Positions 1-19,289 of a stretch of 64,000 nt of DNA are shown in pieces. This stretch comes from Cenarchaeum sp. GTDB lineage: Archaea > Thermoproteota > Nitrososphaeria > Nitrososphaerales > Nitrosopumilaceae. A program made the position numbers and the translations under genes. Where the stretch lies: positions 640,001 through 704,000 of the forward strand of contig OZ243037.1 in NCBI GenBank assembly GCA_965212015.1, given 5' to 3'. The notes beneath the pieces were generated by a model that ran no database searches, had not been told where the DNA came from, and saw only the letters and a program-made list of their open reading frames with translations. Numbering within the stretch: the stretch's first letter is position 1; the number at the start of each line of letters is the position of its first letter.

Positions 1-1
1 A

Positions 2-223
2 ACTAGAAATAAAAATCCACAATTGCCATTAAACAAAGAAGATGTAAGCTATTTAAAATCTGGTCTTAAATTAAATGAACATTATCTTCAAAAATATGAT
101 ACGTGGGTCATTAGCAATATCGAAAATCGAGAAGAAGATCTGCGCATACTGGCATCTAAAGTCTGGGATTTAACAAGCTATATAGACTCTGCAGAAAAAC
201 CAATTAATACGAGTGATAAATGA
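2..223 (+). CDS. 3' end of a hypothetical protein (open to window edge)
   Basis: Frame open from position 2 to TGA at 221-223; AT-rich like neighbours. Confidence 0.5.
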   Translation, partial: TRNKNPQLPLNKEDVSYLKSGLKLNEHYLQKYDTWVISNIENREEDLRILASKVWDLTSYIDSAEKPINTSDK

Positions 224-251
224 TATGATTACGAGGCTAAAAATAATTTAG

Positions 252-407
252 GATAGAATATCTCCCATATGTGTTGGCGCTATTTTAAAATCCCTCCGTA
301 ATAATGACTTTGATGCATACTCTGCTATTTATGTAGTCATTGATAATTCACTGCAAGCCAAATCAAAAGGGATCAAGATTAAATTTAAAATGGATATACT
401 TAGATGA
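252..407 (+). pseudogene. Truncated relic of a GHKL/MORC ATPase N-terminus (paralogue of 2109-3845, inverted)
   Basis: Translates RISPICVGAILKSLRNNDFDAYSAIYVVIDNSLQAKSKGIKIKFKMDILR*, aligning to KISPIRVGAAIKSLRNNDFDAYSAIYEVVDNSIQAESKEIRIKFEMDTLG; no start codon, in-frame TAG just upstream. Confidence 0.85.
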
Positions 408-482
408 ATTTATTCCGTGTACTGTATGTCATTTGTAATTTATTCCAAATATAATATTTTGAGCTAATATTTCTACTCAAAA

Positions 483-2108
483 TCAAGCAGATGATTTGTT
501 GTATTTCCATAGTTCGGCAAAATATTCATCAGCCAATTCTATTGATGGAAGCACATCTAATATTCGAATCAATCTAAATTGCTCTGTTCCACCCATACGT
601 GGACCGCGCATCCCACGTCCGATCATTTGTTGATGAAGCACGATTGATCTAGTCGGCCTAGCTATAAAGACGACATCGATATTAGGTGCATCAAAACCAA
701 CTGCAAAGACATTCACATTACAGATCACTTTGATTGTGCCATTTTTGAATTTTGATATCACATCTCGTCTATATTCAATTGGAGTATTACCGTCAACATG
801 TGCAGCATTACCACCCAGTGCTAAAATTATGGCACATATCAGTTTTGATTGTTTTATGTTTGGGGCAAAATATAGTATCTGTTTGTTCTCATTTATTAGC
901 TGTTTTAATCGTTCAACAATCATGACGTTTCGTTCATAATCCATTGCAATCTTGTCCAATAATTCCAATGGCAGATCATGATCCGCGGCAAATTTACGTC
1001 GCTGTTCCTGTGTTAGGATAAACTCTCTATTGGATTCAATAGTCTCTGGGTCACAGTATGCAAGATATCCCTTTGACTGAAGAAATGAGATATTGTCCAT
1101 ATCACCGGAATCAATCTCAATTATCTGATCATTGAAATATTCTCGTAGTTTTTCATTCTCTGGATTATTCATCCCTCTTACCGGCGTAGCTGTTAAACCA
1201 ACTATTCTTGTTCCCTTTTTTTCAAGCTGGCGTATGATGTTTTTATGCGTAGGCGCAATGATATTGTGAGCTTCATCTGCTACGACTAGTTCAGGTTGGG
1301 GAAAATTGTCTGTTCCTAGTAAATTATTCAGCTTTTGATATGTGGCAACTATGAATGCGTTGGGCTTAAAATCACTAACAGTGTTTTGACCCCACATGCG
1401 ATACACGTGCAATTCATCTTTTCCCAAATGCGACCAAATTTCTTGCATTGATGATATGGCCTGCTCACATAGTTCTTCTCGATCGGCAAGCCATACTGTC
1501 CGTCTCTTTTCATCATTTTCAATGCCATTGTTTAGAAAATTACTTACTATTTCTAAAGCTGTGCGTGTTTTTCCTGCACCTGTGGGCATTTTTATGATAA
1601 AACGTGTCCATTGATTCTCTACTGTACTCATTCCTTCATAGAAGATCTTACTTTGATATTCTTTGAGCATTCTCAGAGGTTTGATTGATGATATTGTAAA
1701 TTCAGCCGCATTATCTTGTGTCGGTTCCGGCAACATGCTGATGTCATATCCAAATTCCTCGATGAATGCACGTGTCTCATCATTATGTCCCCAGGTTAGT
1801 TTTGAAGCCTTTTCAATCAGAGTTGCATATTCCTTATCATTCTGAAATGATCCGATGCCGATCCTATTGAAAAATCTAAGGCATGTTTTTCTATCTGCAT
1901 ATTTGAGAAGTTGTGCACGAAATGTTGATTGTTTGTATGAGGATATGTTAAGTGCATGATGAAGCTTTCCCATGATTTCTTTTGTTTCAATATTAAAATC
2001 TTGATCAGGTGCAATTTTATCTAGAATTAAGTTTATAGGATCCCAATATTCTCTCAAAGAGGTTTCTAATTCACTGCGTGGGAGCTTTTCATTAAGCACT
2101 AGCTTCAC
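483..2108 (-). CDS. Superfamily II DEAD/DEAH-box helicase (ResIII-like + Helicase_C)
   Basis: MPTGAGKT Walker A, DEAH, GLTATP, GFDAP, QMIGRGMR motifs. Confidence 0.9.
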   Translation of the reverse strand: MKLVLNEKLPRSELETSLREYWDPINLILDKIAPDQDFNIETKEIMGKLHHALNISSYKQSTFRAQLLKYADRKTCLRFFNRIGIGSFQNDKEYATLIEKASKLTWGHNDETRAFIEEFGYDISMLPEPTQDNAAEFTISSIKPLRMLKEYQSKIFYEGMSTVENQWTRFIIKMPTGAGKTRTALEIVSNFLNNGIENDEKRRTVWLADREELCEQAISSMQEIWSHLGKDELHVYRMWGQNTVSDFKPNAFIVATYQKLNNLLGTDNFPQPELVVADEAHNIIAPTHKNIIRQLEKKGTRIVGLTATPVRGMNNPENEKLREYFNDQIIEIDSGDMDNISFLQSKGYLAYCDPETIESNREFILTQEQRRKFAADHDLPLELLDKIAMDYERNVMIVERLKQLINENKQILYFAPNIKQSKLICAIILALGGNAAHVDGNTPIEYRRDVISKFKNGTIKVICNVNVFAVGFDAPNIDVVFIARPTRSIVLHQQMIGRGMRGPRMGGTEQFRLIRILDVLPSIELADEYFAELWKYNKSSA

Positions 2109-3845
2109 CTAAACTTTGTATGATTTTCTTAGGTGATGACTCCATTTTAGCATGTGTTCTTCTACCGTATCTTTAACGGATTGCATCCTAGTCAGATCAT
2201 CTAGATCATATTGTCCTTCAGCATATGCATAAAGAAGCCTGTCAATATCAGCCCTTAATGCCTTGCTTGCCTTTTGTAGATCTGATTTTTGCGGATCTAT
2301 AGCCATAGATTCAATTTCAGAGATTCGACGATTGATTTCTACAAAAAATGGGTGTTGCATGTTATAATGAATTACCTTCTTGCCTACATCATCAAGTACA
2401 TCGATAAATGTACCATCGGAACGTGCTTTGTAATCATGAATTATTTTATAGACTATGCTGGGATCCGTTACAGCCTTGACATAATCTGCCTGTTCATCTG
2501 GATTATCGGATATGTCTTTTGATCTATTTTCTATATTCTCTTTTATGTGGTCTTTGGTATCGGTCGATTGCATCGGTGCAGTTATTGGTGTCAATGTCTC
2601 TTCTACAGTTTTATGGCTGTTTATGGGGCCTTTATTTTCTTCATTTTCTTTTTGTTCCTCCGCATCTGCAGCTTCTTTTATTGTTTTCCTAAAATTATTA
2701 AGTATAGTTGGATTGAGTTTTTTTTCTAATATGTCCCTAAGATCTTTAAGCGGTCTAGCACCAACTTTAATATTTTTTACTGAAAACCAATAATCTAAAA
2801 CAGAATCAAAATCAATCTCACATCCCCAAAATCGATCTAGAGGTTTTGCTACAGGTGAGAATCTTGGTATTGGTCCATAATATACTTCGCGTCCATTTCT
2901 CAATATGGAAAATCCTTCGTTATATGGAATTCGTCTTTCTGCACTATGCTTGCTAGTTCCACCATATCCTGGTATGCCGGCATTATCTTTCTTTAACCTC
3001 CAAGATTCTGGCAGTATCGATGTTCTGATTATGATTTTACCTTTTCGCTCACCGCTATTGGGTCTGTCTACATCATGTACGTTATGCTCAAATGAATGTT
3101 CTGGTTGAAGTACTGCTCTTTCATCATCTGGAAATTTAGAGTTTTTTGTAACATATAGAGGATCATGAGAAGCAATTAATTCATTGTTGGAATTATCGGC
3201 CACAAATATTTTTCGTTGATTGTTATTTTTCTTGATCTTGCCGTTTTCTATAATTTCCTCACCTATGAATTTACGATAAATCCTACCAAGGTGATGTTTA
3301 ATCTCCTCAACTTTGAATTCTGAATCAATTCTGTCTATATTGGTCCAAATTACTAGTGTGCCATGATCTCCTACAAGATCTTTGTATTTTGCAGGTAAAT
3401 CTCTTTGTTCGATAGGGCTTAAAGAGGGCTCTACATCATTGTCAATTCCACTGATATCTAAAAGCGTATAATTCCAATTTCCTTGTTTTGCTCTAGAATA
3501 TACTTCAATTTTATTACATACATTGATTGCACCCATAGTCATTCCTACCCCAAATCGTCCTATACCTTTTCGATCATCATATCTGTTTGAATAACCAATG
3601 GCCAAACAGTGCTGAAGTGTCTTAGAGTCCATTCCATGACCATCATCACCAAATGCTATGGCAATTGGACGAGGCACACGTTGGCTCCCCAACGTGTCCA
3701 TTTCAAATTTAATCCTGATCTCTTTTGATTCTGCCTGAATGGAATTATCAACTACCTCATAGATTGCAGAATATGCATCAAAATCGTTGTTACGTAGTGA
3801 TTTTATAGCTGCGCCGACCCGTATAGGGGATATTTTTGTAGACAT
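2109..3845 (-). CDS. GHKL/MORC-like (HATPase_c_3) ATPase
   Basis: EVVDNSIQA, DDGHGM, GRFGVGM, HGTLV Bergerat-fold motifs; S5-like GFSILRNGR; abuts helicase. Confidence 0.88.
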   Translation of the reverse strand: MSTKISPIRVGAAIKSLRNNDFDAYSAIYEVVDNSIQAESKEIRIKFEMDTLGSQRVPRPIAIAFGDDGHGMDSKTLQHCLAIGYSNRYDDRKGIGRFGVGMTMGAINVCNKIEVYSRAKQGNWNYTLLDISGIDNDVEPSLSPIEQRDLPAKYKDLVGDHGTLVIWTNIDRIDSEFKVEEIKHHLGRIYRKFIGEEIIENGKIKKNNNQRKIFVADNSNNELIASHDPLYVTKNSKFPDDERAVLQPEHSFEHNVHDVDRPNSGERKGKIIIRTSILPESWRLKKDNAGIPGYGGTSKHSAERRIPYNEGFSILRNGREVYYGPIPRFSPVAKPLDRFWGCEIDFDSVLDYWFSVKNIKVGARPLKDLRDILEKKLNPTILNNFRKTIKEAADAEEQKENEENKGPINSHKTVEETLTPITAPMQSTDTKDHIKENIENRSKDISDNPDEQADYVKAVTDPSIVYKIIHDYKARSDGTFIDVLDDVGKKVIHYNMQHPFFVEINRRISEIESMAIDPQKSDLQKASKALRADIDRLLYAYAEGQYDLDDLTRMQSVKDTVEEHMLKWSHHLRKSYKV

Positions 3846-3936
3846 TTCTATACAGGGGTAATTATATGCTCTTTTTAATCTATTGGCATATCAGGGCTTG
3901 TATTCATGTACAGTCTTCTTGGGAATCTGAGATCTA

Positions 3937-4902
3937 TCAAGTTTTTCTAATTCTCTGGGATCTGGCGCCAGGCACATCTATCCTGTATCTGCCATTTCCC
4001 AGCTTTTCGAACCATTCCAGTAAAACCTGGACGTTTCCAGTCAGCTCCCTCCTACTCGGCACCGGCACGTCCGTACAGTTGTCCTGAATCCATTCCTTGA
4101 TTCTCCCAAAATATGCCTCTGGAGCGATAAACTCGTCAATCTTCCGGATAAATGAATGCTCGAAAAATTGTGTGGATAATTCCTGCAAAAACTCTTCTTT
4201 TGAAAGCCCGCTGCCAATGTCATAGTTTGCCAGATCATGAAATACACATGCTGCAATCTCGGGATCATCAGATGGTAACTGATCCGCAGCAATTCTTTGA
4301 TATCCGGTTACCAGATCATCCACGCTGCGAGTCATCGGCAGTGCAGATATCAGAAAATCATCCTTTTTTGGCGCTGATATGATGTCCTTTAGTTTGACCT
4401 GCTCTGGCAATTCAACCTTGTTGTTCTCGCTCCATTTTTTGAGCTCTTCATACATTGCATCATCGGCCAATCTTGCCTCACGCCGAATTTTTTCAAAGAA
4501 CAATCTGTCCTTGTTAGTCAGATTTTCAATCAGAGTTGCAGCCTCATAGTTGCCATCCGGTAGCAATCCCCTGTGCGAGATGTTTCCTGTGGCAAGAATT
4601 GCGCTGGAAAGATCAACAGAATACACCTTGAGATGCATGTTTTCGCTGATGTATAACGCAATGTTTCTTTCCTTGCAGAATGGATACAAGGATAATTCTG
4701 ATGATCTAAACTGGATATCTTTTGGCTCCCAGGTGGTGACAATCACCACTTTGTTTTCTATTCCATCCAAAAGCTGCATCAGCACCTTGGTCTTGACATA
4801 TGGAACAAAAAGAAATATCGTCTCATCTGGGTCACACTGTTTTAGATATTCCCTGATATGCTCATACAGTGGGCTGTGATAAAGATCGGTCAAATCATAC
4901 AC
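3937..4902 (-). CDS. Phospholipase D-family (HKD) nuclease domain protein
   Basis: FVPY and HLKVY...ATGNISHRGL...NYEA motif typical of PLD-like nucleases. Confidence 0.75.
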   Translation of the reverse strand: MYDLTDLYHSPLYEHIREYLKQCDPDETIFLFVPYVKTKVLMQLLDGIENKVVIVTTWEPKDIQFRSSELSLYPFCKERNIALYISENMHLKVYSVDLSSAILATGNISHRGLLPDGNYEAATLIENLTNKDRLFFEKIRREARLADDAMYEELKKWSENNKVELPEQVKLKDIISAPKKDDFLISALPMTRSVDDLVTGYQRIAADQLPSDDPEIAACVFHDLANYDIGSGLSKEEFLQELSTQFFEHSFIRKIDEFIAPEAYFGRIKEWIQDNCTDVPVPSRRELTGNVQVLLEWFEKLGNGRYRIDVPGARSQRIRKT

Positions 4903-4903
4903 C

Positions 4904-5677
4904 TCATTTGTAATCCGGAAATCGGTCTTTTATGTATCTGACTTGATCTTTCACGTCTAGCTTTTCCGCCCTTGGGGACGGGCCCCTCACAAAGAATGTC
5001 TTTTCTTTTCCGCAAAGCCATAGGGGACTATTTGCAGGCAATACCTGTATTATGCAGACGGTCTTGTTATCAATAACCCGAAATTTCATCTCTAGTCTGC
5101 TAGTGACAAACACGCGATCCTCCAGTAGATTTTCCAATCTGTCCCTCATGTGATTTGCAAATGAATCCTCATAGTCGGAAAACCCGCCGAATTTTTTATC
5201 CCTGTCCAGACCCACAACAGTACCATTTGACTTGATACCAAGATACACAAATCCTCCCTTTTTGTCGTTCCCAAAAGAGCATATCGCTGTGGCAAATCTC
5301 TCCTGTACGGATTTTTTTATGCCATCTATTGCTTGTTTGCTCTCTGGGGCCTGTTTTTCCAATAATTTCCCTATACTTTCATCATACTGGTAAAATTCCT
5401 TGAATTCATTTTGCTTGTCTTCAGTATCCGGTATCTCTATTTTGCCTAGATCGACAAATCTCGGAGCAGCCGTTGCTTTCTGTACCTTGATGTTTTTGAC
5501 ACGTCCCACCTGCCCGTCCTCCAGCCTGACCTTGATTCCGTGTGGGTGGGTCTCGCTGGAGGTCAGAATCTCGGCCACCACACCGTCAGTCAGTCTGCCC
5601 GTCCCTTGGTTCTCCTTGGTCTCAATCGAGACCACACATCCGCCTTTGATCTGGTTTCTGATCGGAGTCTCCGGCAT
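4904..5677 (-). CDS. YwbE (DUF2196) - Schlafen/AlbA_2 fusion protein
   Basis: N-term TGRLTDGVVAEILT...HPHGIKVRLEDGQVGRV (YwbE); C-term EDKQNEFKE...ICSFGN..GGFVYLGI (AlbA_2). Confidence 0.8.
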   Translation of the reverse strand: MPETPIRNQIKGGCVVSIETKENQGTGRLTDGVVAEILTSSETHPHGIKVRLEDGQVGRVKNIKVQKATAAPRFVDLGKIEIPDTEDKQNEFKEFYQYDESIGKLLEKQAPESKQAIDGIKKSVQERFATAICSFGNDKKGGFVYLGIKSNGTVVGLDRDKKFGGFSDYEDSFANHMRDRLENLLEDRVFVTSRLEMKFRVIDNKTVCIIQVLPANSPLWLCGKEKTFFVRGPSPRAEKLDVKDQVRYIKDRFPDYK

Positions 5678-5713
5678 GGGTGTTACTTGGAGGCGTCACA
5701 ATTTAAGCCTGAT

Positions 5714-6245: not shown

Positions 6246-6725
6246 GTGAAAATCTCCTTCAGGGTGTGCGGCAAGCCTCCGAAAAAATCAAGCGGGGGCT
6301 CGATTTGGACCGGCGAGTCAAGATCCGAACAGGTCCTAGATCTGCGCAGATCCGCGGCAGGTGAAAAAAAGAGGATAAACATGGAGTATCCTATGAGGGG
6401 CCCGCTAAGGATCAAACTGACAATACACTCCTCACAGGACATCACGAAAAAGGAGGATACCCACAATTACATCGGGGATCTGGACTCGCTTGTGGCCGGG
6501 GTGTGCGATGCCCTGAGGAAGGCAGATGAGAACGTCACGCCTCACGTGCGGTTCAACCAATACAAGGAAGTCGACCCGAAAAAACCCCTCATAATCGAGG
6601 ACGACTCGAACATAACTGCAATCGAGGCCAGCAAGATCAAGGACACCGAGGAATACTATACGGTGACAGTTGAGGAGATCCGGAATTCTAGCATGTGCGG
6701 ATTCCTGAAAAAAATCCGGGGCTGA
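6246..6725 (+). CDS. RusA-like Holliday junction resolvase/endonuclease
   Basis: G-x-P-x-x-K N-terminus, GDLDSLVAGVCDAL and IIEDDSNI acidic motifs characteristic of RusA. Confidence 0.65.
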   Translation: MKISFRVCGKPPKKSSGGSIWTGESRSEQVLDLRRSAAGEKKRINMEYPMRGPLRIKLTIHSSQDITKKEDTHNYIGDLDSLVAGVCDALRKADENVTPHVRFNQYKEVDPKKPLIIEDDSNITAIEASKIKDTEEYYTVTVEEIRNSSMCGFLKKIRG

Positions 6726-6825: not shown

Positions 6826-7149
6826 TTGGTAAAATCCAAGGAATCGATCAAGGAACGATACCGAAAATACCAGAGGGAATATCATAGGAAATATTATCAA
6901 AAGCCGGAGACAAAGGAATGGGTTAGAGAATACAACCAGAGGCCGGAGGTAAAGGAAAGGCTCAGGAAATACAACCAAAGGCCGGAGGTAAAGGAAAAGC
7001 TCAGGAAATACAACCAGAGATCGGAGGTAAAGGAGCGGATCCGAAAATACCATCAGAGGCCGGAGGTAAAGGCGCGTAAAAGATATTTGGCAAAGATGAG
7101 GAGGATCCGTGGGAAATCCAAGACAAAGACCCGTAGAAAATCATACTGA
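6826..7149 (+). CDS. Highly basic repeat protein (YNQRPEVKERLRK 13-aa repeats)
   Basis: TTG start; tandem 39-bp coding repeats; paralogue immediately downstream. Confidence 0.65.
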   Translation: MVKSKESIKERYRKYQREYHRKYYQKPETKEWVREYNQRPEVKERLRKYNQRPEVKEKLRKYNQRSEVKERIRKYHQRPEVKARKRYLAKMRRIRGKSKTKTRRKSY

Positions 7150-7229: not shown

Positions 7230-7763
7230 TTGGCAAAATCCAGGGAATCGGCCAAAAAAAGACTGGAAAGGCTAAGGCGCCAGAGGGAGTATGCCCAGAG
7301 GCCAGAAGTGAAGAAAAGGCTCAGGAAATACCGCCAGAGGCCGGAGGTAAAGAAGCGGATCCAGAAATACCAGAAGGAATACAGCCAGAGGCCGGATGCG
7401 AAAAAGCGGAATCGGGAACGACAGAAAAAATATAGCAAGAGGCCCGAGGTGAAAAAGCGACACGCTGAAAACAGCCTGAAATACAGTCGAAGGCCGGAGG
7501 TAAAGAAGCGGGTCAGGAAACGCAATCAGAGGCCGGAGGTAAAGAAGAGGGTCAGGAAATACCACCAGAGGCCGGAGATGAAGAAACGTAAGGGAGAATA
7601 CATGAAGAAATACAACCAGAGGCCGGAGGTGAGGAAACGCAAAAGGAGATACGCCCAGAGGCTGGAGGTGAAGGAACGTAAGAGAGAATACCAGAAAAAA
7701 TATTATCAAAGGCCGGAGGTAAAGGCGCGTAGAAGACACTCAGCAAAGACCCGTGGGAAATAA
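7230..7763 (+). CDS. Highly basic repeat protein (about 10 RPEVK-type repeats)
   Basis: Paralogue of 6826-7149 with similar start, end and upstream CATAATAATTCC motif. Confidence 0.65.
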   Translation: MAKSRESAKKRLERLRRQREYAQRPEVKKRLRKYRQRPEVKKRIQKYQKEYSQRPDAKKRNRERQKKYSKRPEVKKRHAENSLKYSRRPEVKKRVRKRNQRPEVKKRVRKYHQRPEMKKRKGEYMKKYNQRPEVRKRKRRYAQRLEVKERKREYQKKYYQRPEVKARRRHSAKTRGK

Positions 7764-7773
7764 CTAGTCCGAT

Positions 7774-7920
7774 GATGGTCCTTGGGTAGTCGGGCTGGCC
7801 TGCCAGCCCGACGGTGTGGTGGTACGGGGCTCCCGTCAGGGAGCCCGGGGAAAAGACGTTGATGGAGCCGAGTGAGAGTTCGTTGTCGGGGGATTGTGAG
7901 GTAACTGCGAGCTGAAAATC
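7774..7920. repeat. Conserved hairpin-rich element, copy 1 of 5
   Basis: GTCGGGCTGG-cctg-CCAGCCCGAC stem (7789-7812), GGGCTCCC-gtca-GGGAGCCC stem (7827-7846), TGTGAGGTAACTGCGAG at 7895. Confidence 0.9.
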
Positions 7921-7937
7921 TGTTCGGAGAGTTTGAA

Positions 7938-8122
7938 AAAGGTGCAAAAGGGGTCAGTTAGTGACGCAAAATAAGTCACCGGAAAAGGAGTCAAAGGTGC
8001 AAAAGGGGTCAGTTAGTGACGGAAAATAAGTCACCGGAAAAGAAGTCAAAGGCGCTTTAGGGGTCGGAGAATTAGGGGTCGAAAGCGCCTTAGGGGTCGA
8101 CGATAGGCGCTTTAGGGGTCGG
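7938..8122. repeat. Iteron-like array 1 (55-bp period x2, then TTAGGGGTCG x4)
   Basis: GGTGCAAAAGGGGTC at 7941 and 7996; GTC motif spacing 22/33 bp. Confidence 0.85.
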
Positions 8123-8283
8123 ACATCGGTGGGGCTTGAACAGTTTTGATTTTTGTAATTGGATATCGTGTTGGTGATATGGAAAACCCAAGTGAACCTG
8201 ACTCCGCCTGACACAGGACTGTGATTGCCAAAGTAATACAGGCCGTATGATTCGAGGTCGGTCCGAGCCTACCCATCCTGTCA

Positions 8284-8443
8284 GGCCGGGACTCTGATTT
8301 GGGCGGTCGGGCCGGCTCACGGCCCGACGGTGTGATGGTACAAGGCTCCCAACGGGAGCCTTGGGAGATGACCTTGAAGGCCAGGATGAGGTCGTCATTG
8401 GAGGGTTTGTGAGGTAATGCAAGTCGAAAATCCGCGCGCGGGG
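8284..8443. repeat. Conserved hairpin-rich element, copy 2 (most diverged)
   Basis: GTCGGGCCG-gctca-CGGCCCGAC, GGCTCCC-aac-GGGAGCC, TGTGAGGTAA at 8408. Confidence 0.85.
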
Positions 8444-8459
8444 CGGAATCCCACGATGA

Positions 8460-8621
8460 AAATACATGGTTTCCATGGTTTTTTTACATGGATTCCATGT
8501 TCTGGAAAACAGGCAAAACATGGTTTCCGTGGCTTTTTTACATGGATTCCATGTTCTGGAAAACCTGTAAAACATGGTTTCCATGTTTTAAAAAACAGGC
8601 AAAACATGGATTACATGGTTT
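8460..8621. repeat. Iteron-like array 2 (palindromic ACATGGWTTCCATG units)
   Basis: Units at 8465, 8487, 8519, 8541, 8573, 8605 (spacing 22,32,22,32,32). Confidence 0.9.
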
Positions 8622-8786
8622 GACGCGGGTCTGAATGATTCCGGCCTCTACATGAATGACAAAAGACGTTAGGAAACAAGCCTCTGCCACTCGTTTATCC
8701 TGACCGTTTCCTGAATAGCTAGATTACATCTGGGGGCTAGGATGATCCTGATACCGTTGGCCAGTGCCAGCCTTGGTGTGTGGTTT

Positions 8787-8975
8787 GGGCCGGGACTCCG
8801 GCCCGGGATGATACTGGGCAAGAGGGCCGGCTCTGCCGGCCCGACGGTGTGGTGGAACGGGGCCTCCCGTCAGGGAGCCCCGGGAAAAAGACATTGAGAT
8901 TACTGAATCGTGGTTCGTCGTTGGGGGGTTTGTGAGGTAACTGCGAGTTGGAAATCCGCGCACGAGGCTTGAAAA
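8787..8975. repeat. Conserved hairpin-rich element, copy 3
   Basis: GGGCCGG-gact-CCGGCCC, GGGCCGGC-tct-GCCGGCCC, CTCCC-gtca-GGGAG, TGTGAGGTAACTGCGAG at 8931. Confidence 0.9.
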
Positions 8976-8977
8976 AT

Positions 8978-9135
8978 GGCACTTTTGCAGTCAAAAAAAT
9001 GTAGGCAAAAGCATTTTTGCAGTCAATTTTTGGCACTTTTGCAGTCAGTAAAAAGATGCCAAAAGCATTTTTGCAGTCAAAAAAATGCAGTCAAAAGCAC
9101 TTTTGCGGTCGAAAAACGACCCTTTTGCGGTCGAA
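8978..9135. repeat. Iteron-like array 3 (TTTTGCRGTC units)
   Basis: GCRGTC at 8987, 9019, 9041, 9073, 9105, 9127 (32,22,32,32,22), plus one off-lattice copy at 9087. Confidence 0.9.
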
Positions 9136-9233
9136 ATGGATCCGGATGACAGGACGGCTCAAAAGCCAGAGCAGATAACAGAGTCGACCTGCCATCAAGA
9201 TTGAGAGACTCCCCTTGGTGATGTGGGACCTGC

Positions 9234-9551
9234 GGGCCTTGGTGACCTGTACGGGCCTTGGTGACCTGTACGAGTGTGTACGGGCCTTGGTGACCTGTAC
9301 GAGTGTGTACGGGCCTTGGTGACCTGTACGGGCCTTGGTGACCTGTACGAGTGTGTACGGGCCTTGGTGACCTGTACGAGTGTGTACGGGCCTTGGTGAC
9401 CTGTACGAGTGTGTACGGGCCTTGGTGACCTGTACGAGTGTGTACGGGCCTTGGTGACCTGTACGAGTGTGTACGGGCCTTGGTGACCTGTACGAGTGTG
9501 TACGGGCCTTGGTGACCTGTACGAGTGTGTACGGGCCTTGGTGACCTGTAC
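9234..9551. repeat. Perfect tandem repeat: 29-bp unit GGGCCTTGGTGACCTGTACGAGTGTGTAC x9 plus three 19-bp truncated units
   Basis: Counted directly; units identical, no unique spacers. Confidence 0.95.
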
Positions 9552-9565
9552 GGACTCGTATCCTG

Positions 9566-9751
9566 TCCGGGCCGGGACTCCGGCCCGGATGGTTCTGGGC
9601 AAGAGGGCCGGCTCTGCCGGCCCGATGGTGTGGAGATGGGGGCTCCCGCCAGGGAGCCCGAGGAAGAGACGTTGAGATTACTGAATGGTTCGTCGTTTGT
9701 GGGTTTGTGAGGTAACTGCGAGTTGGAAATCCGCGCGCGGGGCTTGAAAAA
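9566..9751. repeat. Conserved hairpin-rich element, copy 4
   Basis: TCCGGGCCGG-gact-CCGGCCCGGA, GGGCCGGC-tct-GCCGGCCC, GGGCTCCC-gcca-GGGAGCCC, TGTGAGGTAACTGCGAG at 9706. Confidence 0.9.
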
Positions 9752-9899
9752 CGACCTCTTTGCGGTCGGTTTTCGACCCTTTTGCGGTCGAAAAAAAGAG
9801 GTCGAAAGCACTTTTGCGGTCGAAAAACGACCCTTTTGCGGTCGAAAAAAAGAGGTCGAAAGCACTTTTGCGGTCGAAAAGCGACCCTTTTGCGGTCGA
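9752..9899. repeat. Iteron-like array 4 (TTTGCGGTCG units, 54-bp period)
   Basis: GCGGTC at 9762, 9784, 9816, 9838, 9870, 9892 (22,32,22,32,22). Confidence 0.9.
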
Positions 9900-10127
9900 T
9901 ATGGTAGGATGACAGAGCGGCTCAGGAGTCGTAGTAAGTAACACCGAGTCGGCTGGCCATCAAGATTGGAACAGACCCATTGGTCATGTGGCCTGTGGCC
10001 AGCCTTGGTGATCTGTGGGAGTCGTGACTTTTCCAGATGGTTTTGGGTAAGATGACCGGCTCTGGCCGGCTTGGTGTGTGGTCCGGCCCGGATGATTCTA
10101 GGTAAGAGGGCCAGACCTGCCGGCCCG

Positions 10128-10265
10128 AGATGGTCCTTGGCTAGTCGGGCTGGCCTACAGCCCGACGGGATTTGGTATGAGGCTCCCGCCAGGGAGCCTT
10201 GGGGAAAAGACGTTGAGATTACTGAATCGTGGTTCGTCGTTTGTGGGTTTGTGAGGTAACTGCGA
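10128..10265. repeat. Conserved hairpin-rich element, copy 5 (degenerate partial modules upstream at ~10036-10128)
   Basis: GTCGGGCTG-gccta-CAGCCCGAC, GGCTCCC-gcca-GGGAGCC, TGTGAGGTAACTGCGA at 10250. Confidence 0.9.
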
Positions 10266-10309
10266 ACCTGCTGCTACAAACACGCGCGTGCGGGGGATAT
10301 TAGGCATAT

Positions 10310-10836
10310 TTTTGCGTACACTCAGTGTACCGTCACGTAGCACCCAGTGTACGCAAAAAGGGTACACTTGGTACACTTGGTGTACCCATACGTAGCACTT
10401 GGTGTACCCAGTGTACGCAAAAAGGGTACACTTGGTACACTTGGTGTACCCATACGTAGCACTTGGTGTACCCAGTGTACGCAAAAAGGGTACACTTGGT
10501 ACACTTGGTGTACCCATACGTAGCACTTGGTGTACCCAGTGTACGCAAAAAAATGCATTTAATGCATTCAAAAAATGCATTTAATGCACTCAGTGTACGC
10601 AAAAAAATGCATTTAATGCATTCAAAAAATGCATTTAATGCACTCAGTGTACGCAAAAAAATGCATTTAATGCATTCAAAAAATGCATTTAATGCACTCA
10701 GTGTACGCAAAAAAATGCATTTAATGCATTCAAAAAATGCACTTAATGCACTTTGTGCTACCTCACGTGGCTCTTTGTGCTACCCCCGCATAGCTCTTTG
10801 TGCTCTTTGTGCTACCCCACGTAGCTCTTTGTGTCC
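10310..10836. repeat. Composite iteron-like array 5: 64-bp x3 (10345-10536), 54-bp x4 (10537-10752), CTTTGTGCTAC units (10751-10836)
   Basis: CAGTGTACGC at 10345, 10409, 10473, 10537, 10591, 10645, 10699; ATGCATTTAATGCA at 22/32 spacing; CTTTGTG at 10751, 10773, 10805, 10827. Confidence 0.92.
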
Positions 10837-11056
10837 TTTTTACCCCAAGTTGATCTGTGGCAACAGATACAGAAATTAAAGATAAATTAAATCCCGTGCG
10901 GTCACACCAACATCTGTTTTCCCGCGCCCCAAAACCAATAATGATTTCCAAACAGGACTGGCAGAATCCAAGACATCAATCAAGTAAAGGCTCAGACGCC
11001 AGAGGCATGGCGTAAGAGTCATGCTCCTGTAACTTGTGCTCGTTGTACCGCCGACA

Positions 11057-12589
11057 CTAGGATTCCCGCGCGGTTGCCCGGCGCACAAGGAACCTGCCGT
11101 CGGAGAGCTCCGTGTCCACCTCCCACCCCTGGGCAGAATGCTCCAGCAGGCTCTGTTCATCCTCGATAATTCGGCTTTCATATGGGGCATCCGCCTTGGC
11201 AGGTCTTGCCGGTATTTCCTTGGGGACCGTGACAGAATCGTTTCGGATCAGGGAAGTCGGATCCATCCCGTACATCTTGGCCTGCTGCCGCCACAGGTTG
11301 AGTAGCATGTCCTTTTTGTTAGCGCCGTCGGCCTTGAGGTCCGTAGCCAGAAACGTCTGACTCTGCGCGTACGCGCGCCTCATGTCCTCCGTCATCTGCT
11401 CTGTGAGCCTGCCCTTGTTGGTGGTGTATCGAGCCTCCATGTCGCCCTTGTGTCCCATAAAGAATTGTCTGTATGCGTGCGTCATGCACCCGTGGCTTTC
11501 GGCCATGAGCATCTGCGTGTCAAAGTATGCCCTCAGGGCGTACGGGCGGATCTTCATCACGCCCCAGATCGTCCTCCGTATGCTCTCCGATATGGCCGGC
11601 GTGGTCAGAAATAATGTGTCCGATTTCTTACGCTGCCCCCTTTCCTGGTATCCATTGTTGAACGTAATGAGCGGCGAGTCCGGTTCCAGTATATCGCCGT
11701 GCGCGATACGCTGCCGCAGATATCCCAAAAGATACTCACATCCCTGCTTTGTCAGGAACGTAAAGTACTTGTTTTTGGTCTTGCTAAGCTGGGCGCGGAC
11801 GACAATCATTGCCGGCATCTTTTCAAACGACACCCTGTCGCCGTCGATGCGCAGTTCCGGCAGATCCGAGAGTTTCAGCCCGTCACCCTTGTCAGACGTG
11901 CCCATCACCTGGGGGCGGATGCCGGAGAATGCCATCATGCCTACGATGAGCTTTGTGCGCGGGGATCCTGCGCCTAGAATCTGATCAAGTTGCTCCTGCG
12001 TGGGGACCTGCTCGTCCTCTATGCTTACCGCAATGCTGGCGTTTCTCACCTTTATTTTGCGCCTTATCTCGATGTGGTTGTATTCAAGCCACGACTTTAT
12101 CGCCTTTATCATCCCCTCTGTGTAGCCCGGCGCGTAATTCTGTTTTTCCATCCACGAGACGTGATCAAGCAGAATGTTCTCCATGTCCATTGGATTGTCG
12201 CGTCCTATGGTAACCAAGTTTGTAGGAGTCTTGTCAACCCTGTGGCAGAACAGATTGAGTCTGCGCAGCCTTACCTTTGAGTTGAGTATGCTAGAGCGCG
12301 CACAGTTTTCATACCAGCGTCTAACGTCATCATCCTTCAATAGTATAACTGGAGCTTGTGTCGTCACCTGATTCCACCGGATGTTATCAAAACGCGTTCC
12401 CCTATTTTTCCTTTTTGTTGTACGATTTTTTTCGTTAGGAATTATATTAGAGGAGTTTTCATGTTGTGTAATAACCGCGCGCTTTTTTTCCGGTTCCCTG
12501 TCAGGGCGCCGTGAGTTTGCACTCTTTATTTGTAGGCGAGGCTTGCAGTCGGCTTTTGAATTTACAGATTTTGTTTTCTGTTTTTTCAT
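11057..12589 (-). CDS. Tyrosine recombinase / site-specific integrase (start uncertain)
   Basis: SGIRP (catalytic R), RPYALRAYF, FMGH, ARYT (catalytic Y). Confidence 0.88.
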   Translation of the reverse strand: MKKQKTKSVNSKADCKPRLQIKSANSRRPDREPEKKRAVITQHENSSNIIPNEKNRTTKRKNRGTRFDNIRWNQVTTQAPVILLKDDDVRRWYENCARSSILNSKVRLRRLNLFCHRVDKTPTNLVTIGRDNPMDMENILLDHVSWMEKQNYAPGYTEGMIKAIKSWLEYNHIEIRRKIKVRNASIAVSIEDEQVPTQEQLDQILGAGSPRTKLIVGMMAFSGIRPQVMGTSDKGDGLKLSDLPELRIDGDRVSFEKMPAMIVVRAQLSKTKNKYFTFLTKQGCEYLLGYLRQRIAHGDILEPDSPLITFNNGYQERGQRKKSDTLFLTTPAISESIRRTIWGVMKIRPYALRAYFDTQMLMAESHGCMTHAYRQFFMGHKGDMEARYTTNKGRLTEQMTEDMRRAYAQSQTFLATDLKADGANKKDMLLNLWRQQAKMYGMDPTSLIRNDSVTVPKEIPARPAKADAPYESRIIEDEQSLLEHSAQGWEVDTELSDGRFLVRRATARES

Positions 12590-12703
12590 ATTGAAAGCGC
12601 CACTAGACCCGCTTCCACTGTGGGTTCGGGTCTTTCCCTGGCAAAATGCCCACAAACCGGTATCCGCGGGTGATTAACGCCCCCGCTTTTGCTGTATCGG
12701 CAA

Positions 12704-13966
12704 CTATTCTGTTTGGCCCGTCTTGGCGCTCATCAGCACCTCTAGTACCCGGTCAAGCTGTTCTGGCGTTGCCTTTTCCATGACGTTCTGTATGTGGTGT
12801 CTCTGCTCCAGTGTGGGGTCTATCTTGCTCTGATCCAGATACTCCTCGGATCGCATGAATCCCTCGCGCATCTCGGCTGTCAGGACCTCTGGCAGTATGC
12901 TCTTGTTTGTCGTGTACCTTGACTCCATGCTGCCCTTGTGTCCCATGAAAAAGACCCTAAAGTCGTGGGCTATCTTTCCCTTGGACTCTGCAATTAGCAG
13001 CTGCGTGTCAAAGTACGCCCTTAGAACGTATGGCCTCCATGTGAATCTGGGCCTGAACGTCCTTCTTACCAGATCACTTATTTGCTGCGTGGGCAGAAAC
13101 GCCTTTCTTGTATTGACGCCCCTGTGCGTCTTGTAGATATAGTCGGGCGCTACAATTGGCGCATTATCGTGCAGTGATTCCCCGTGAACCAGCCTGTCGT
13201 TCAGGTATGCCACGATGTGGCTCGTTGCGGACTGTGTCGAGAATGTAAAGTACTGGTGGCGTGCCTTTGAGAGCTCGCGCCGTACTATGATTCTGTTTGG
13301 AATTCTAACGCACTTTGCCTTTCCCTGATGGATTACCAGATCCGGCAGATCCTTCATTTGCAGTCCGTCCGTTCCGTTATGGTTTCCAATGACCTGTGGT
13401 CTGAGGCCCGACTTTGCCATCAGCGATATTATCACCGACTCGCGCAGGCCGGCCCTGCTGTATATCTCGGTCATCTCTTGCCCCTCCGGGACGCGTTCGT
13501 TTTGAAGCGTAGGGGTATAGTTTGTGGACGTCACCTTGATCTTTCTTCGTATCTCCACATCAAAGTGTCTCAGCCACGACTTTACCGTCTTGATCTGCTC
13601 CTCAATGTATCCCGGGGAATAATTCTTGGACTCCATCATGGTGATGTGATCCTCAAGCAAGTCCGTTGCAGTTCTCAGATCCCTAGTTGCCAGATCCGCC
13701 AGCTGTATCGGTGTCATCTGGTGAATCTCGCAGAACCGTCCCAGTCTCCTGAGACGCCCATCTGCTGTGATGGGGCTTCCGCGCGCCAGATTATCATGCC
13801 ATCTTTTGATGTCCGTGTTGGCCAACAGCCTTGATTTTTTTGTCTGTTTGGCAGTATCTTTTGCGTATGGTTTTGTTTTTTCCATATCTGTCAGCCTCTC
13901 GGTTACATTCTCGGTATGGTATGGTTTTGCTATTTGACTTTTGAGCGCGTTTTCCATTGTTATCAT
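12704..13966 (-). CDS. Tyrosine recombinase / site-specific integrase, paralogue of 11057-12589
   Basis: SGLRP, RPYVLRAYF, FMGH, SRYT motifs. Confidence 0.9.
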   Translation of the reverse strand: MITMENALKSQIAKPYHTENVTERLTDMEKTKPYAKDTAKQTKKSRLLANTDIKRWHDNLARGSPITADGRLRRLGRFCEIHQMTPIQLADLATRDLRTATDLLEDHITMMESKNYSPGYIEEQIKTVKSWLRHFDVEIRRKIKVTSTNYTPTLQNERVPEGQEMTEIYSRAGLRESVIISLMAKSGLRPQVIGNHNGTDGLQMKDLPDLVIHQGKAKCVRIPNRIIVRRELSKARHQYFTFSTQSATSHIVAYLNDRLVHGESLHDNAPIVAPDYIYKTHRGVNTRKAFLPTQQISDLVRRTFRPRFTWRPYVLRAYFDTQLLIAESKGKIAHDFRVFFMGHKGSMESRYTTNKSILPEVLTAEMREGFMRSEEYLDQSKIDPTLEQRHHIQNVMEKATPEQLDRVLEVLMSAKTGQTE

Positions 13967-14496: not shown

Positions 14497-14557
14497 GCCT
14501 TACTTGTAGGAATCGTAGGAAAAACACATAAAGTATCCCCAAGAATGTAAAGATCAC

Positions 14558-16474
14558 TTGAAAAGTAAGGCAAAAAAGGCATCTCAGATGGCCAAATGTA
14601 CTACAATGCTAAAGTGGTATTTTCCACCAACAGGTGGTGGAGTAACTCAGGGATTTAATGATGGTTCACAAGAATTCTTCCGATCTAATGCATGGGAGCA
14701 GACCATAAGAGAGATAATTCAGAATTCACTTGATGCTGTAGATGATCGAAGAGACGGGCCAGTAAAAATAAACATCTCTGAAATAACGATACCTGCATCA
14801 GAGATAGGAGCCACTGATCTTGCTGGCCACATAAGCAAGGCTTTGGAACGCACTAGAAAACAAGAATCCACCACAGGGAGTAAATTTTACGAAAATGCAT
14901 TGAAGGTTTTAAATCAAAATGAGATCAAAATGCTTGCAATAACTGATACTAACACTACAGGTTTAGTGGATGAAAAATGGGATGCGCTGATATATGATGA
15001 AGGTACATCAAGTAAAGGTGGTATAAATGCAGCAGGAGGAAGTTTTGGCATTGGAAAAAATGCACCATATGTGGTTTCAGATTTAAAAACTGTATGTTAT
15101 TCCACACGATATCTAGGCAAGGGAAGAATTGAAAAGTTTATTGCTCGATGCAAGATTTCTGCACATGAGAATCCCGATGAATCTTCTAAAGAAATGCTAC
15201 AACACATAGGATTTGGAACTAAAACAAAATTAGCAAAAAATATTCGTCCTTTACCAACAGAAGGAAGTGACATTCATCAACTATTTCGTCTTGATGAATA
15301 TGGAAGTGGAATATTTATTATGGGATTTAATCCACAACTAAAAAATTGGATCAAAGTGGCCAAAAAATCTATAGCACATAATTTTTTTGTTGCAATACAT
15401 GAAAAGAAATTAGAAATTTATATAAATTCTGATCCGATAAACTATGAAACATTAGATGGTATATTTGAGGATGATCGTAAAAAAGAACCTACTCGTCACT
15501 ATTATCATATCATCCGTGATGATATTAAGAAAGAAATTGTAGAAGGAGATCTGGGAAAATTTACAGTACAAATAAATATTGATGATGAAGATGCACCAAA
15601 CCAAATTGCATATATAAACCGAAGAGGAATGATGGTAACTGACAAGCGTATTTTCGATGAAAATCCATTTTATACGGCAGTTGGAAAAGGTTGGGCCAAA
15701 TATGCAGTAGTAATTATGTCACATGATGATGCAACAGATATGAAAATACGTATGATGGAGCCGCCTAACCATCAATCAATCGAATACAAGCGCATCAATG
15801 ATCATAAAAAACGAGATTCTATGGAACGACAACTTCGTGTCATAAAAAATAAAATTACTGATATTATTAACAACGCAATTTCCGACAGTAATCATGAACA
15901 TGACATAAATCTATCAGAACTTGCAGACATATTGCCTTTTCCTGATGATTCAGGAAAAGAAGGTATTGAACAAAGTGAAAAAGATCAGTCTCTAGATCAT
16001 CATACTATAGAGTCTGGCACATCATCTCATATCGTAGATGATGATGGATTAGATTCAGGTAAAAAGTTAGGTGGGACCTCAGATACACATGGAAAGAATC
16101 ATAAATCTATTTCTGGTCGCAAAATAAGCAGTAAAGGAACACCAATTTTGCATCGTCAGCGAATTGTGCGCAGCAAGGATATACTCCGTGTTGCATTTAC
16201 ATCACGTCAAAATAATGGAAAACCAGTGTGCTTTGGCATCAAACCTGTAGGTGAAGAAAGAAAAAATGAAATCATGATTCCAATAACTTCGGCCCGTGTG
16301 GAAACACCATCGAATTTTACCATTAAAATGAATAACAATCGTATAACCATGACTCCAAAATATGATGAACGGGTTGTAATGGATCTAAAAATACCTCAAA
16401 CCAAGTCATATACAGGATATGAGATCATTGAAATAGTACAAAACAAAAAACCCTCAAAAGGTAATAAAAAATGA
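14558..16474 (+). CDS. GHKL-like ATPase domain protein
   Basis: REIIQNSLDA, ITDTNTTGL, GGSFGIGK motifs; first gene of an overlapping operon. Confidence 0.75.
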   Translation: MKSKAKKASQMAKCTTMLKWYFPPTGGGVTQGFNDGSQEFFRSNAWEQTIREIIQNSLDAVDDRRDGPVKINISEITIPASEIGATDLAGHISKALERTRKQESTTGSKFYENALKVLNQNEIKMLAITDTNTTGLVDEKWDALIYDEGTSSKGGINAAGGSFGIGKNAPYVVSDLKTVCYSTRYLGKGRIEKFIARCKISAHENPDESSKEMLQHIGFGTKTKLAKNIRPLPTEGSDIHQLFRLDEYGSGIFIMGFNPQLKNWIKVAKKSIAHNFFVAIHEKKLEIYINSDPINYETLDGIFEDDRKKEPTRHYYHIIRDDIKKEIVEGDLGKFTVQINIDDEDAPNQIAYINRRGMMVTDKRIFDENPFYTAVGKGWAKYAVVIMSHDDATDMKIRMMEPPNHQSIEYKRINDHKKRDSMERQLRVIKNKITDIINNAISDSNHEHDINLSELADILPFPDDSGKEGIEQSEKDQSLDHHTIESGTSSHIVDDDGLDSGKKLGGTSDTHGKNHKSISGRKISSKGTPILHRQRIVRSKDILRVAFTSRQNNGKPVCFGIKPVGEERKNEIMIPITSARVETPSNFTIKMNNNRITMTPKYDERVVMDLKIPQTKSYTGYEIIEIVQNKKPSKGNKK

Positions 16475-17307
16475 GTCATACGAACTTCTTGCTACCACAT
16501 CCAATAATTAAACCTGGAGGATTTGACTACAATGAAAATTGTCACTTTGACATAGAGATAAAACAGGCCACGACACTTGATGGAAATATCCACATTGAGA
16601 TATCATGTGATCTGTCCAGTTTTACTATAAATGATCTCATAAAGAAAGAAAAAGCAAAATTTTTTATTACTTTAAAATGTGTTAAAACCCATCAAAGAAT
16701 CACACATAGCTTTACAGAAACTTCCATGGTTTGGGATATTCCGATGTCTAACTGTGTCGATAAAATAAACATAACGCCATATGTGGCAACAACTGAGGAA
16801 ATACCAGCATTTTACTCCAAAGAACATGATGATGAAATTCAACAAATGATTCCTGATGGCGTAGATCTTCCGACAGGTGCCATTTTGGCAGTAGGAAAAT
16901 CACACGAAATCACGATTGATGCGATAGAAAAGATCCAAGCTGCCATCAAGATAATCCAAAATAAGGAATTGGAAGTAGGAACTTACGCCATAGACACCAG
17001 TGGCGATTATCTAGACATTCAAATGCATCCTAAAACACAAAACAGCATACGTAATATACACAACCAATCAGTAGAACTTTTGTATCCATCAATTTACCTG
17101 ACTGCCATCGAACAAGCCATACGTGATATGGAAAATTATAAAGATCGCAAATGGGCACAAGCTTTGCACAAAACTCTAGAAAAACACAATATTGAGATTG
17201 ATTATGATAAATTAAAGGAAGAAGCAAATAAGCATGCCCAGACAATACTGAACAAACCATTGGATCGCATCATACAATGGCACAATCGAGAGAATGAATA
17301 TGATTGA
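16471..17307 (+). CDS. Hypothetical protein
   Basis: 278 aa; stop/start overlaps with both neighbours as given in the ORF track. Confidence 0.8.
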   Translation: MSHTNFLLPHPIIKPGGFDYNENCHFDIEIKQATTLDGNIHIEISCDLSSFTINDLIKKEKAKFFITLKCVKTHQRITHSFTETSMVWDIPMSNCVDKINITPYVATTEEIPAFYSKEHDDEIQQMIPDGVDLPTGAILAVGKSHEITIDAIEKIQAAIKIIQNKELEVGTYAIDTSGDYLDIQMHPKTQNSIRNIHNQSVELLYPSIYLTAIEQAIRDMENYKDRKWAQALHKTLEKHNIEIDYDKLKEEANKHAQTILNKPLDRIIQWHNRENEYD

Positions 17308-19241: not shown

Positions 19242-19289
19242 GTATGATCATGCCATTTGAATATCTTTTACTTTCCATGGAGATATGTC

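Follow-up and report, generated by a model that had tools for sequence, protein, structure and literature searches.

Why should a short non-coding sequence be kept in five neighboring copies whose hairpins persist while their letters change? This question is raised by the 64,000-nucleotide (nt) stretch analyzed here (the window), which corresponds to bases 640001-704000 of the 1.76-Mb single-contig genome of a Cenarchaeum sp.; the genome encodes archaeal AmoA and therefore belongs to an ammonia-oxidizing archaeon. The original prediction had read the five copies as selected secondary structure, either a structured non-coding RNA (ncRNA) or a single-stranded DNA (ssDNA) signal. We find that the element is real, selected and strand-specific, and that it comprises three hairpins (A, B and C) in about 125 nt of non-coding sequence. 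As to its function, we infer, tentatively and at somewhat less than an even chance, that a single strand of it folds into a signal at a cis site of the origin type, serving transfer or replication.

Structure and covariation of the element

The five copies in the window are the following:

7789-7915, plus strand: element copy 1, with stems A, B and C; covariance-model matches of 134.1 and 120.1 bits; nhmmer match 7766-7943
8306-8427, plus strand: element copy 2; nhmmer match 8283-8462; found in both covariance-model searches
8822-8951, plus strand: element copy 3; nhmmer match 8799-8984; found in both covariance-model searches
9603-9726, plus strand: element copy 4; nhmmer match 9582-9758; found in both covariance-model searches
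10144-10270, plus strand: element copy 5; nhmmer match 10123-10307; found in both covariance-model searches

Copy 1 starts 25 nt past the stop codon of a repeat-protein open reading frame (ORF) upstream. All the arms and loops that the original prediction had quoted for stems A and B were located in the sequence. Stem A is formed by GTCGGGCTGG/CCAGCCCGAC in copy 1, GTCGGGCCG/CGGCCCGAC in copy 2, GGGCCGGC/GCCGGCCC in copies 3 and 4, and GTCGGGCTG/CAGCCCGAC in copy 5, and stem B by GGCTCCC/GGGAGCC with the loops gtca, aac and gcca. These two stems had been described correctly, but the third hairpin had been overlooked: stem C closes a conserved G/T-rich loop of about 26 nt (...TCGTyGTT...GTGAGGTAAcTG). 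The additional hairpin GGGCCGG-gact-CCGGCCC, predicted for copies 3 and 4, was found 5' of each of them, at 8787-8806 and 9567-9586, respectively, and degenerate hairpin units with a period of 55 nt occupy 10032-10136, 5' of copy 5. The 5' part of the element is built of repeated hairpin-plus-GT-linker units. A coding function was considered for the element and rejected, since the copies differ by indels of 1-2 nt.

To examine the structure across homologues, a covariance model of stems A, B and C (R1) was used, together with a second model (R2) rebuilt from the R1 matches. The controls consisted of 500 shuffles and of slid structures, in which the 3' partners were moved by 1-3 columns. In the model-based alignment of 21 full copies, 88.5% of the cells were paired (74.2 ± 1.1 in shuffles), two-sided change was seen in 18 of 25 pairs (10.9 in shuffles) and the covariation score was 0.404 (0.161 in shuffles); on each of these three measures the observed value was reached by 0 of 500 shuffles, a control that is not to be read as a probability. 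With 28 distinct copies, 86.8% of the cells were paired (70.7 ± 1.1 in shuffles), 21 of 25 pairs showed two-sided change (13.1 in shuffles), and the score was 0.436 compared to 0.174, again reached by none of the 500 shuffles. Sliding the partners in the 28-copy set left a score of at most 0.120 and at most 58% paired cells. The covariation thus grew with added homologues and lay far above both controls, which bears out the claim of selected secondary structure. By helix, the 28 copies gave:

Helix A: two-sided change in 8 of 9 pairs; 82.8% of cells paired
Helix B: two-sided change in 7 of 8 pairs; 95.0% of cells paired
Helix C: two-sided change in 4 of 6 pairs; 87.1% of cells paired

Since five copies of this genome stand one column out of register, the value for helix A is too low. 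In an alignment-free listing, a clean hairpin was present at the A and B positions in 21 of 21 copies, with very different letters (stem A variants GTCGGGCTGG, GGGCCGGC, CTGGGACG, TCAGGCCCC and TTCGGCCGG; stem B variants GGGCTCCC, GGGCCCCC, GGAGACCC with one mismatch, GGGCCGCC and GGTGCCCT). RNAalifold, the tool named in the original prediction, was run on 27 of the 28 copies, aligned plainly with MAFFT and not fitted to the model; it still recovered stem B, with 4 of 6 pairs compensatory, but no other stem. Stem A is lost in plain MAFFT alignments because its arms are out of register between types. The structure is conserved via compensatory change across two genera, as the homologues described below belong to a second genus.

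Which strand folds? For 10 of the 11 full copies of this genome (copy c8, near-identical to c7, was dropped), plus-strand folds were better than those of dinucleotide shuffles, with z from -1.65 to -4.21, and in 7 of the 10 at most 1 of 200 shuffles folded equally well. Stems A and B were present in every fold of either strand. They fold on both strands because they are palindromes, and folding energy therefore cannot pick the strand. Wobble pairs point to one strand: in paired columns, the 21-copy set had 38 G.T against 6 A.C (324 against 249 in slid structures), and the 28-copy set 55 against 13 (363 against 305 in slid structures). The latter excess was seen in both groups of copies, with 24 against 3 in this genome and 31 against 10 in the other genus. 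The plus strand is rich in G and T: in the alignment of 21 copies it has 1005 G, 595 T, 539 C and 418 A. From this pattern, the plus strand appears to be the folded strand, read single-stranded. The excess of G.T fits RNA and ssDNA alike.

The main rival to a DNA signal enters here. The plus strand could be a structured RNA, which might be a small ncRNA of its own or form the 3' end of the transcript of the upstream repeat-protein gene; we consider this possible but not probable. It would tolerate the G.U-type wobbles just described (55 versus 13), and one pair of stem C forms, in the 28 copies, a classical series of U.G (10 cells), C-G (11 cells) and U-A (4 cells). Variable stems combined with linkers and a stem C loop that are conserved in sequence speak in its favor as well. 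Its roles might include control of the copy number or expression of a mobile element, or a processing or stability signal.

Distribution of the family

An nhmmer profile built from the five copies detected 15 copies in this genome (E <1e-5). Eleven are full: the five in the window and those at genome positions 324k (minus strand), 756k, 1134k, 1162.7k, 1163.4k and 1163.9k. The remaining four, at 947k (minus strand), 1108k, 1144k and 159k, are partial, and their breakpoints differ. The covariance models matched 15 times in this genome, and their use on archaeal genomes, as originally proposed, brought up homologues in two more, 13 in G096 and 4 in G078, which represent another genus of the same archaeal family. 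The copies in G096 had first been spotted by eye, 3' of a homologue of the 532-amino-acid (aa) recombinase described below, where perfect 32/33-nt arrays are followed by a diverged element.

In total, 3 of 151 genomes of the archaeal family were positive (this genome, G096 and G078). In the genus of G096, the covariance model detected the element in 2 of 5 genomes, while neither BLAST nor the covariance models found it in the four other genomes of this genome's genus, and 0 of 150 other genomes were positive in a class-wide sample searched with the covariance model. The genome sets are samples, from which absence elsewhere does not follow; in the samples searched, the element is rare and patchy. 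Simpler searches were mostly silent. BLAST with the element gave no hit in 40 relatives, no metagenome or viral contig matched a gapped pattern made of stem B and the 3' motif, and nhmmer had no hit in the flanks of 29 integrase homologue loci. An exact 17-mer scan returned 9 loci in genome contigs and 1 in viral contigs, all taken as chance; with nhmmer, 4 of these 10 loci showed weak matches centered on the seed motif (E 0.001-0.009), whereas the viral contig and the five other loci showed none.

The original prediction had regarded a match to a known Rfam family as evidence against itself. Rfam 15 gave no match at gathering score in the whole window. Relaxing the limit to E 5 brought 39 weak matches, all in repeat arrays (8448-8631, 9027-9084, 9353-9468 and 10306-10893), and 0 of the 39 overlapped the five cores.

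Patchiness is one of the points that would suit a functionless origin, in which the hairpins are by-products of a selfish or neutral repeat that is spread by recombination and kept palindromic by template-switch (quasipalindrome) correction. The element occurs in 3 of 151 family genomes and 1 of 151 in the class sample, the region is rich in perfect, evidently recent tandem repeats, and the 5' part of the element is, as mentioned, itself repetitive. However, hairpin order, spacing and the stem C loop are kept across two genera despite stem turnover, arm-to-arm correction predicts no strand-biased excess of wobbles, and the element keeps its place with respect to the iterons and AbrB gene described in the next section. 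We rate this explanation as very unlikely; like the integron-like one discussed below, it accounts for fewer of the observations.

As a separate observation on two of the dispersed copies, the partial copy at 1108.08-1108.27k and the full copy at 1134.14-1134.33k have about 110 nt of upstream flank in common. Together they form a direct repeat of about 190 nt whose two units, about 26 kb apart, enclose a transposase- and defense-rich stretch.

Module anatomy and gene context

The original prediction had not recognized the larger module to which the element belongs, consisting of the core, phased iterons and an AbrB-type gene, carried by integrated mobile elements. In the 3' direction, the core is followed in order by GGAAAT, an alternating purine/pyrimidine tract or GC box (for example CCGCGCGCGG, CACGCGCGTGCG and ATGCGCATACGTG; TGCATGCG in G096), a G-run, an A-run and finally the array of palindromic sites. 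This order is conserved between modules, with the core always a few tens of nt 5' of the iterons. In the window, the arrays are:

7938-8125: module 1 iteron array, a 55-nt unit x2.1, then TTAGGGGTCG sites
8464-8621: module 2 iteron array, six palindromic ACATGGnTTCCATG sites, spacings 22, 32, 22, 32 and 32
8977-9139: module 3 iteron array, six TTTTGCRGTCR sites, spacings 32, 22, 32, 32 and 22
9759-9901: module 4 iteron array, six TTTGCGGTCG sites, spacings 22, 32, 22, 32 and 22
10316-10833: module 5 iteron arrays, 64-nt unit x3.3, 54-nt unit x4.0 and 23/31-nt units, spacings 22/42 and 22/32

Arrays thus hold about six palindromic sites each, spaced by 22, 32 or 42 bp. At about 10.7 bp per turn these spacings are whole turns, so that the sites of an array face the same side of the DNA and the iterons are helically phased. 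Array periods in G096 and G078 are 22, 23, 32, 33, 54, 55 and 64-66. The stretches between sites repeat too (units of 54, 55 and 64 nt, 96-100% match), unlike a CRISPR array with its unique spacers. T-runs occur inside the iterons, 3' of the core.

The alternating tract, which stands between stem C and the iterons with GGAAAT on one side and the G-run plus A-run on the other, is present in most copies and measures 8-13 nt (window 8428-8447, 8952-8972, 9727-9747 and 10275-10297, and the corresponding places of other copies). Its symmetric variants suggest a double-stranded or Z-DNA-prone signal.

Spacers and repeat arrays make up the DNA between the cores. The ORFs that can be read in these stretches overlap across the two strands and extend through repeated sequence. 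Two features precede copies 3 and 4:

9140-9232 and again 9905-10000, plus strand: conserved spacer S (GGATCCGGATGACAG...), part of which recurs in G096, in the other genus
9219-9552: perfect tandem repeat with 19/29-nt units on GGGCCTTGGTGACCTGTAC

Perfect tandem repeats based on GGGCCTTGGTGACCTGTAC are also found at genome positions 324.7-325.0k, 756.2-756.5k, 1162.6k and 1163.2-1163.4k, always 5' of the core and with unit lengths that vary by locus (19, 27 and 29 nt). In G078, the equivalent place is taken by 15-nt x20 and 51-nt x6.2 repeats. At G096 loci L098, L101, L107, L109 and L120, a conserved AT-rich box, acatgatattatgattttaaaat and then GGTTATCTGTGG, lies about 140 nt 5' of stem A; it could be a promoter or an unwinding element. 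At about 10863 in the window, past the module 5 arrays, GTTGATCTGTGG runs into the remnant of a repeat-protein gene start. Across window positions 8257-10131, contigs of a related organism join modules at, for example, 9588->10131, 8403->9701 and 9232->10001 (80% likeness, weak), which suggests that a related strain has a different number of modules.

All copies lie in integrated mobile elements or in variable, mobile-gene-rich regions. In six modules (this genome's 324k and 756k, L121 and L125 in G096, L123 and L124 in G078), an AbrB/MazE-like ORF follows 3' of the array:

L037:7916-8293, minus strand: AbrB/MazE-like gene
L038:8913-9239, plus strand: AbrB/MazE-like gene
L125:10400-10753, plus strand: AbrB/MazE-like gene
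L121:9147-9434, plus strand: AbrB/MazE-like gene
L123:8332-8619, minus strand: AbrB/MazE-like gene
L124:10006-10425, plus strand: AbrB/MazE-like gene

Four of the six had Pfam hits, and the two G078 ORFs were assigned by position and alignment. All six proteins end in a common C-terminal tail, (E/D)(K/R)L(K/E)(K/R)L-x-(I/M/L)K, and differ in their DNA-binding parts, a predicted architecture that is adaptor-like.

At 324k and 756k the order is integrase, ParM-like gene, a gene for a 1036-aa VirD4-like ATPase, AbrB gene, iterons, core and tandem repeat. The AbrB-like gene is separated from parM by the ATPase gene, and the two are convergent. The only two ParM-like genes of this genome are at 320k and 760k. 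G078 has the same gene order, with ParM-like genes within about 4-6 kb of 4 of 4 copies. For the VirD4-like ATPase there was no sequence hit in the PDB, and Atlas look-alikes of its N-terminal 400 residues were uninformative. A model of the ParM-like and AbrB-like proteins in complex scored 0.53, compared to 0.01 for the best of 3 controls, and supports their pairing weakly: 116 of 157 solved complexes reach this mark, as do 2 of 215 mismatched pairs, and scores reaching it at no more than 0.60 came from only 18 of the 157 solved complexes and from both mismatches. The model runs agreed in at least 60% of contacts, with a predicted local distance difference test score (pLDDT) of at least 54 for the partner. 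A solved ParR-ParM complex exists, and the pass may therefore reflect mere likeness to it.

The window represents a second backbone, in which co-oriented ORFs for RPEVKKR-repeat proteins are followed by the modules and then by convergent recombinase-like genes. The same core is thus found on two different element backbones, in two genera. The genes concerned are:

6826-7149 and 7230-7763, plus strand: two ORFs for very basic proteins of 13-aa RPEVKKR-type repeats, 5' of the modules and co-oriented with them
11057-12655, minus strand: gene of a divergent tyrosine-recombinase-like protein of 532 aa, convergent with the modules; weak match to XerA (E 5e-5)
12704-13966, minus strand: gene of a second recombinase-like protein, of 420 aa and with 41% identity to the other; XerA E 3e-3

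The repeat proteins, with a unit of 13 aa (39 nt) of the type Y-x-Q-R-P-E-V-K-K-R, had no hit in Pfam, NCBIfam or PHROG. Paralogues are encoded at genome positions 325.0-326.3k (minus strand), 1145.9-1147.3k (minus strand), 1161.7-1162.5k (plus strand) and 881.3-881.8k (minus strand). For both recombinases the archaeal XerA model was the sole match, far below its cut-off; neither the 532-aa nor the 420-aa protein hit an integron-integrase model or Pfam Phage_integrase. Homologues of the 532-aa protein were found in 81 of 301 family genomes (76 of 296 if the unpublished genomes G093, G221, G243, G273 and G275, on which nothing else reported here depends, are excluded), and a paralogue adjoins tRNA-Lys(ctt). 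There, at 1161.7-1166.4 kb, the window backbone is duplicated with 69-80% identity, and the modules pair across the duplicates as c3-c7, c4-c8 and c5-c9. Tandem modules in G096 are convergent with the integrase homologue, as in the window.

Since the modules adjoin recombinase genes, could the hairpins be recombination sites? In this explanation they would serve, double-stranded or folded, as sites of the adjacent tyrosine recombinases, and the modules would be shuffled site-specifically, as in an integron. Tandem modules lie next to recombinase genes in the window, at 1162-1166 kb and in G096; structure and not sequence is conserved, as in attC sites; and the contigs of the related organism mentioned above join modules at homologous positions, at the same weak likeness of 80%. 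Other observations argue against it. Candidate att sites of three elements are repeats linked to tRNA genes: an 18-nt exact tRNA-Asp repeat at 744.6k and 764.3k, which would set the 756k module about 8 kb inside an element of about 20 kb; a 158-nt repeat beside tRNA-Val; and, at 1136.5k and 1145.5k, stretches of 17-20 nt that match the tRNA-Lys(ctt) region with borderline E. Moreover, in the ParM-type elements, unrelated integrases stand at a distance of about 7 kb from single modules, the recombinases match no integron-integrase model, the four partial copies break at different positions, and the cargo consists of repeat arrays rather than ORFs. We consider this explanation very unlikely. That the element is itself an att site was rejected, given the tRNA-linked candidate repeats and the differing breakpoints of the partial copies.

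Candidate roles of the folded core

The element is the invariant core of a modular cis cassette in integrated, plasmid-like elements of ammonia-oxidizing archaea. In the reading that we favor, the variable iterons would be the specific landing pad of each module's AbrB-type adaptor, forming a centromere- or origin-type site, and the constant folded core would be read single-stranded by machinery common to all modules, as the single-strand signal of an origin of transfer or replication. A nucleic acid read single-stranded is indicated because pairing, order and spacing persist as the stem sequences turn over, and because wobbles are tolerated on one strand only. Action at the DNA level is indicated because the core is fixed beside protein-binding arrays whose specificity changes between modules, and because these arrays are linked to AbrB adaptor-like, ParM-like and VirD4/FtsK-like proteins.

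Several points weigh against this reading. The ssDNA state is itself deduced from sequence. The covariation alignment was fitted to the model and leans toward its structure, and the copies are related, so that their cells are not independent events. By energy, the minus strands of the 10 folded copies beat their dinucleotide shuffles no less significantly than the plus strands do (z from -2.08 to -5.27). The A-run beside the iterons, at 5-7 nt, is short compared to a classical unwinding element. No relaxase, Rep or primase was recognized in the small elements, and no AbrB-like or ParM-like gene in the island of the window, so that its five modules would need to work in trans or else be relics; in the favored reading, they would be orphan cis sites served in trans. 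Finally, 3 of the 11 full copies (c1, c7 and c11) lie directly 3' of a co-oriented ORF, which favors transcription of the plus strand as RNA.

This last point counts for the RNA explanation, as do the T-runs within the iterons downstream and the AT-rich box found in G096 about 140 nt 5' of 6 copies. By contrast, no promoter is evident directly 5' of the element in this genome, where the spacer and the tandem repeat are GC-rich, and the Rfam searches gave the RNA no family. An RNA gene would also leave unexplained the constant adjacency of the iterons without an intervening gene, and the five tandem copies.

How does the cassette compare with known systems? Conserved hairpin cores beside variable repeats for an accessory protein reportedly occur in the origin of transfer (oriT) region oriT-trwA-trwB of R388 and in the staphylococcal pWBG749-type oriT, and orphan "oriT mimics" occur on non-conjugative bacterial plasmids. 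The likeness lies in a constant inverted-repeat core beside variable repeats for a small, adjacently encoded DNA-binding protein, in a VirD4-type ATPase nearby and in gene-less copies on other elements. However, no relaxase or type IV secretion genes were recognized here, the host is an archaeon, and there are three hairpins with a large conserved loop. Single-strand initiation hairpins are known from ssiA/ssiB of the IncQ oriV and from the three-hairpin complementary-strand origin of phage G4. Here too there are phased iterons beside GC-rich and A-rich stretches and strand-specific hairpins, three of them in about 130 nt; the differences are that no initiator or primase was recognized, that the hairpins are on one strand only and that up to five modules stand in tandem.

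In type II partition (ParMRC), parC iterons are bound through the adaptor ParR to the actin ParM. The elements described here resemble it in a ParM-like gene (in the 324k and 756k elements and in G078), phased repeat arrays and a small predicted DNA-binding protein with a conserved C-terminal tail, and the phased repeats (22/32/42 bp, about six sites per array) agree with the direct repeats of such a centromere. They differ in that the adaptor has an AbrB/MazE fold and not a ribbon-helix-helix, that its gene is convergent with parM with the 1036-aa ATPase gene between them, and that the island of the window has no ParM-like gene; nor is parC known to have a folded core. The likeness to integron attC, tandem structure-conserved and strand-specific folded sites beside a tyrosine recombinase gene, is formal only, as the recombinase is not of the IntI type, the cargo is non-coding, the candidate att sites are tRNA-linked and the element also occurs singly, far from this recombinase. 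By this comparison, none of oriT, IncQ/G4, ParMRC or attC can be claimed as a family assignment.

It is tempting to speculate further on the gene-less modules, five in the window and three in the paralogous element at 1162-1164 kb. They may be a battery of pirate cis sites, each with a different iteron specificity, an idea that we regard as unlikely. If true, a cryptic integrase-only element would be segregated, replicated or transferred by the AbrB-adaptor/ParM/VirD4-like machinery of co-resident helpers or, alternatively, would exclude helper elements by titration. Archaea would then have their own equivalent of oriT mimicry or centromere piracy.

To our knowledge, very little has been described of the cis-acting sites of archaeal mobile elements, those of ammonia oxidizers especially. 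This study yields a covariance model, 28 copies and a defined three-hairpin structure, as well as a protein/DNA pairing for testing (an AbrB-type adaptor, 22/32-bp phased sites and a ParM-like protein), so that the mechanism by which these elements are maintained or transferred becomes directly testable. The element is new to the databases and papers searched. A survey of integrated elements in this phylum reports that the replication protein could not be identified for many cryptic elements, and searching its text by keyword brought up no iterons, structured non-coding elements or modules of this kind (PMC6563490). A literature search found no prior description among the texts consulted; the nearest, as far as the parts consulted go, are the Borg elements of archaea, with perfect tandem repeats in intergenic DNA and inside ORFs (PMC9879509). 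Perfect, evidently recent tandem repeats, both intergenic and in ORFs of an archaeal mobile element, are common to both, but the arrays described here are helically spaced palindromic sites tied to a conserved folded core and an AbrB-type gene, which sets them apart from the Borg repeats as described in those parts (PMC9879509).

Some further observations concern the surroundings of the modules. The 756k element encodes a 323-aa protein (L038:13751-14722, minus strand; genome 761.75-762.72k) that matches PHROG "DNA topoisomerase" at E 8e-88; it had no hit in Pfam or the PDB and no relative in G096, G078 or viral contigs, and it is outside the core gene set. The island of the window may span from tRNA-Lys(ttt), at genome position 628.9k, to a weak 31-nt repeat at window 24070-24100 (E 0.25). 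Stretches of low GC content (35-40%) at window 1-5700 and 14500-24000 carry defense-type genes, including helicase, HATPase, PLD-like, DUF2196/AlbA_2, DndB-like, PAPS-reductase/DUF6339 and HNH genes. At window 6246-6725 (plus strand), a 159-aa ORF has a weak PHROG match to a RusA-like Holliday junction resolvase (E 5.7e-6).

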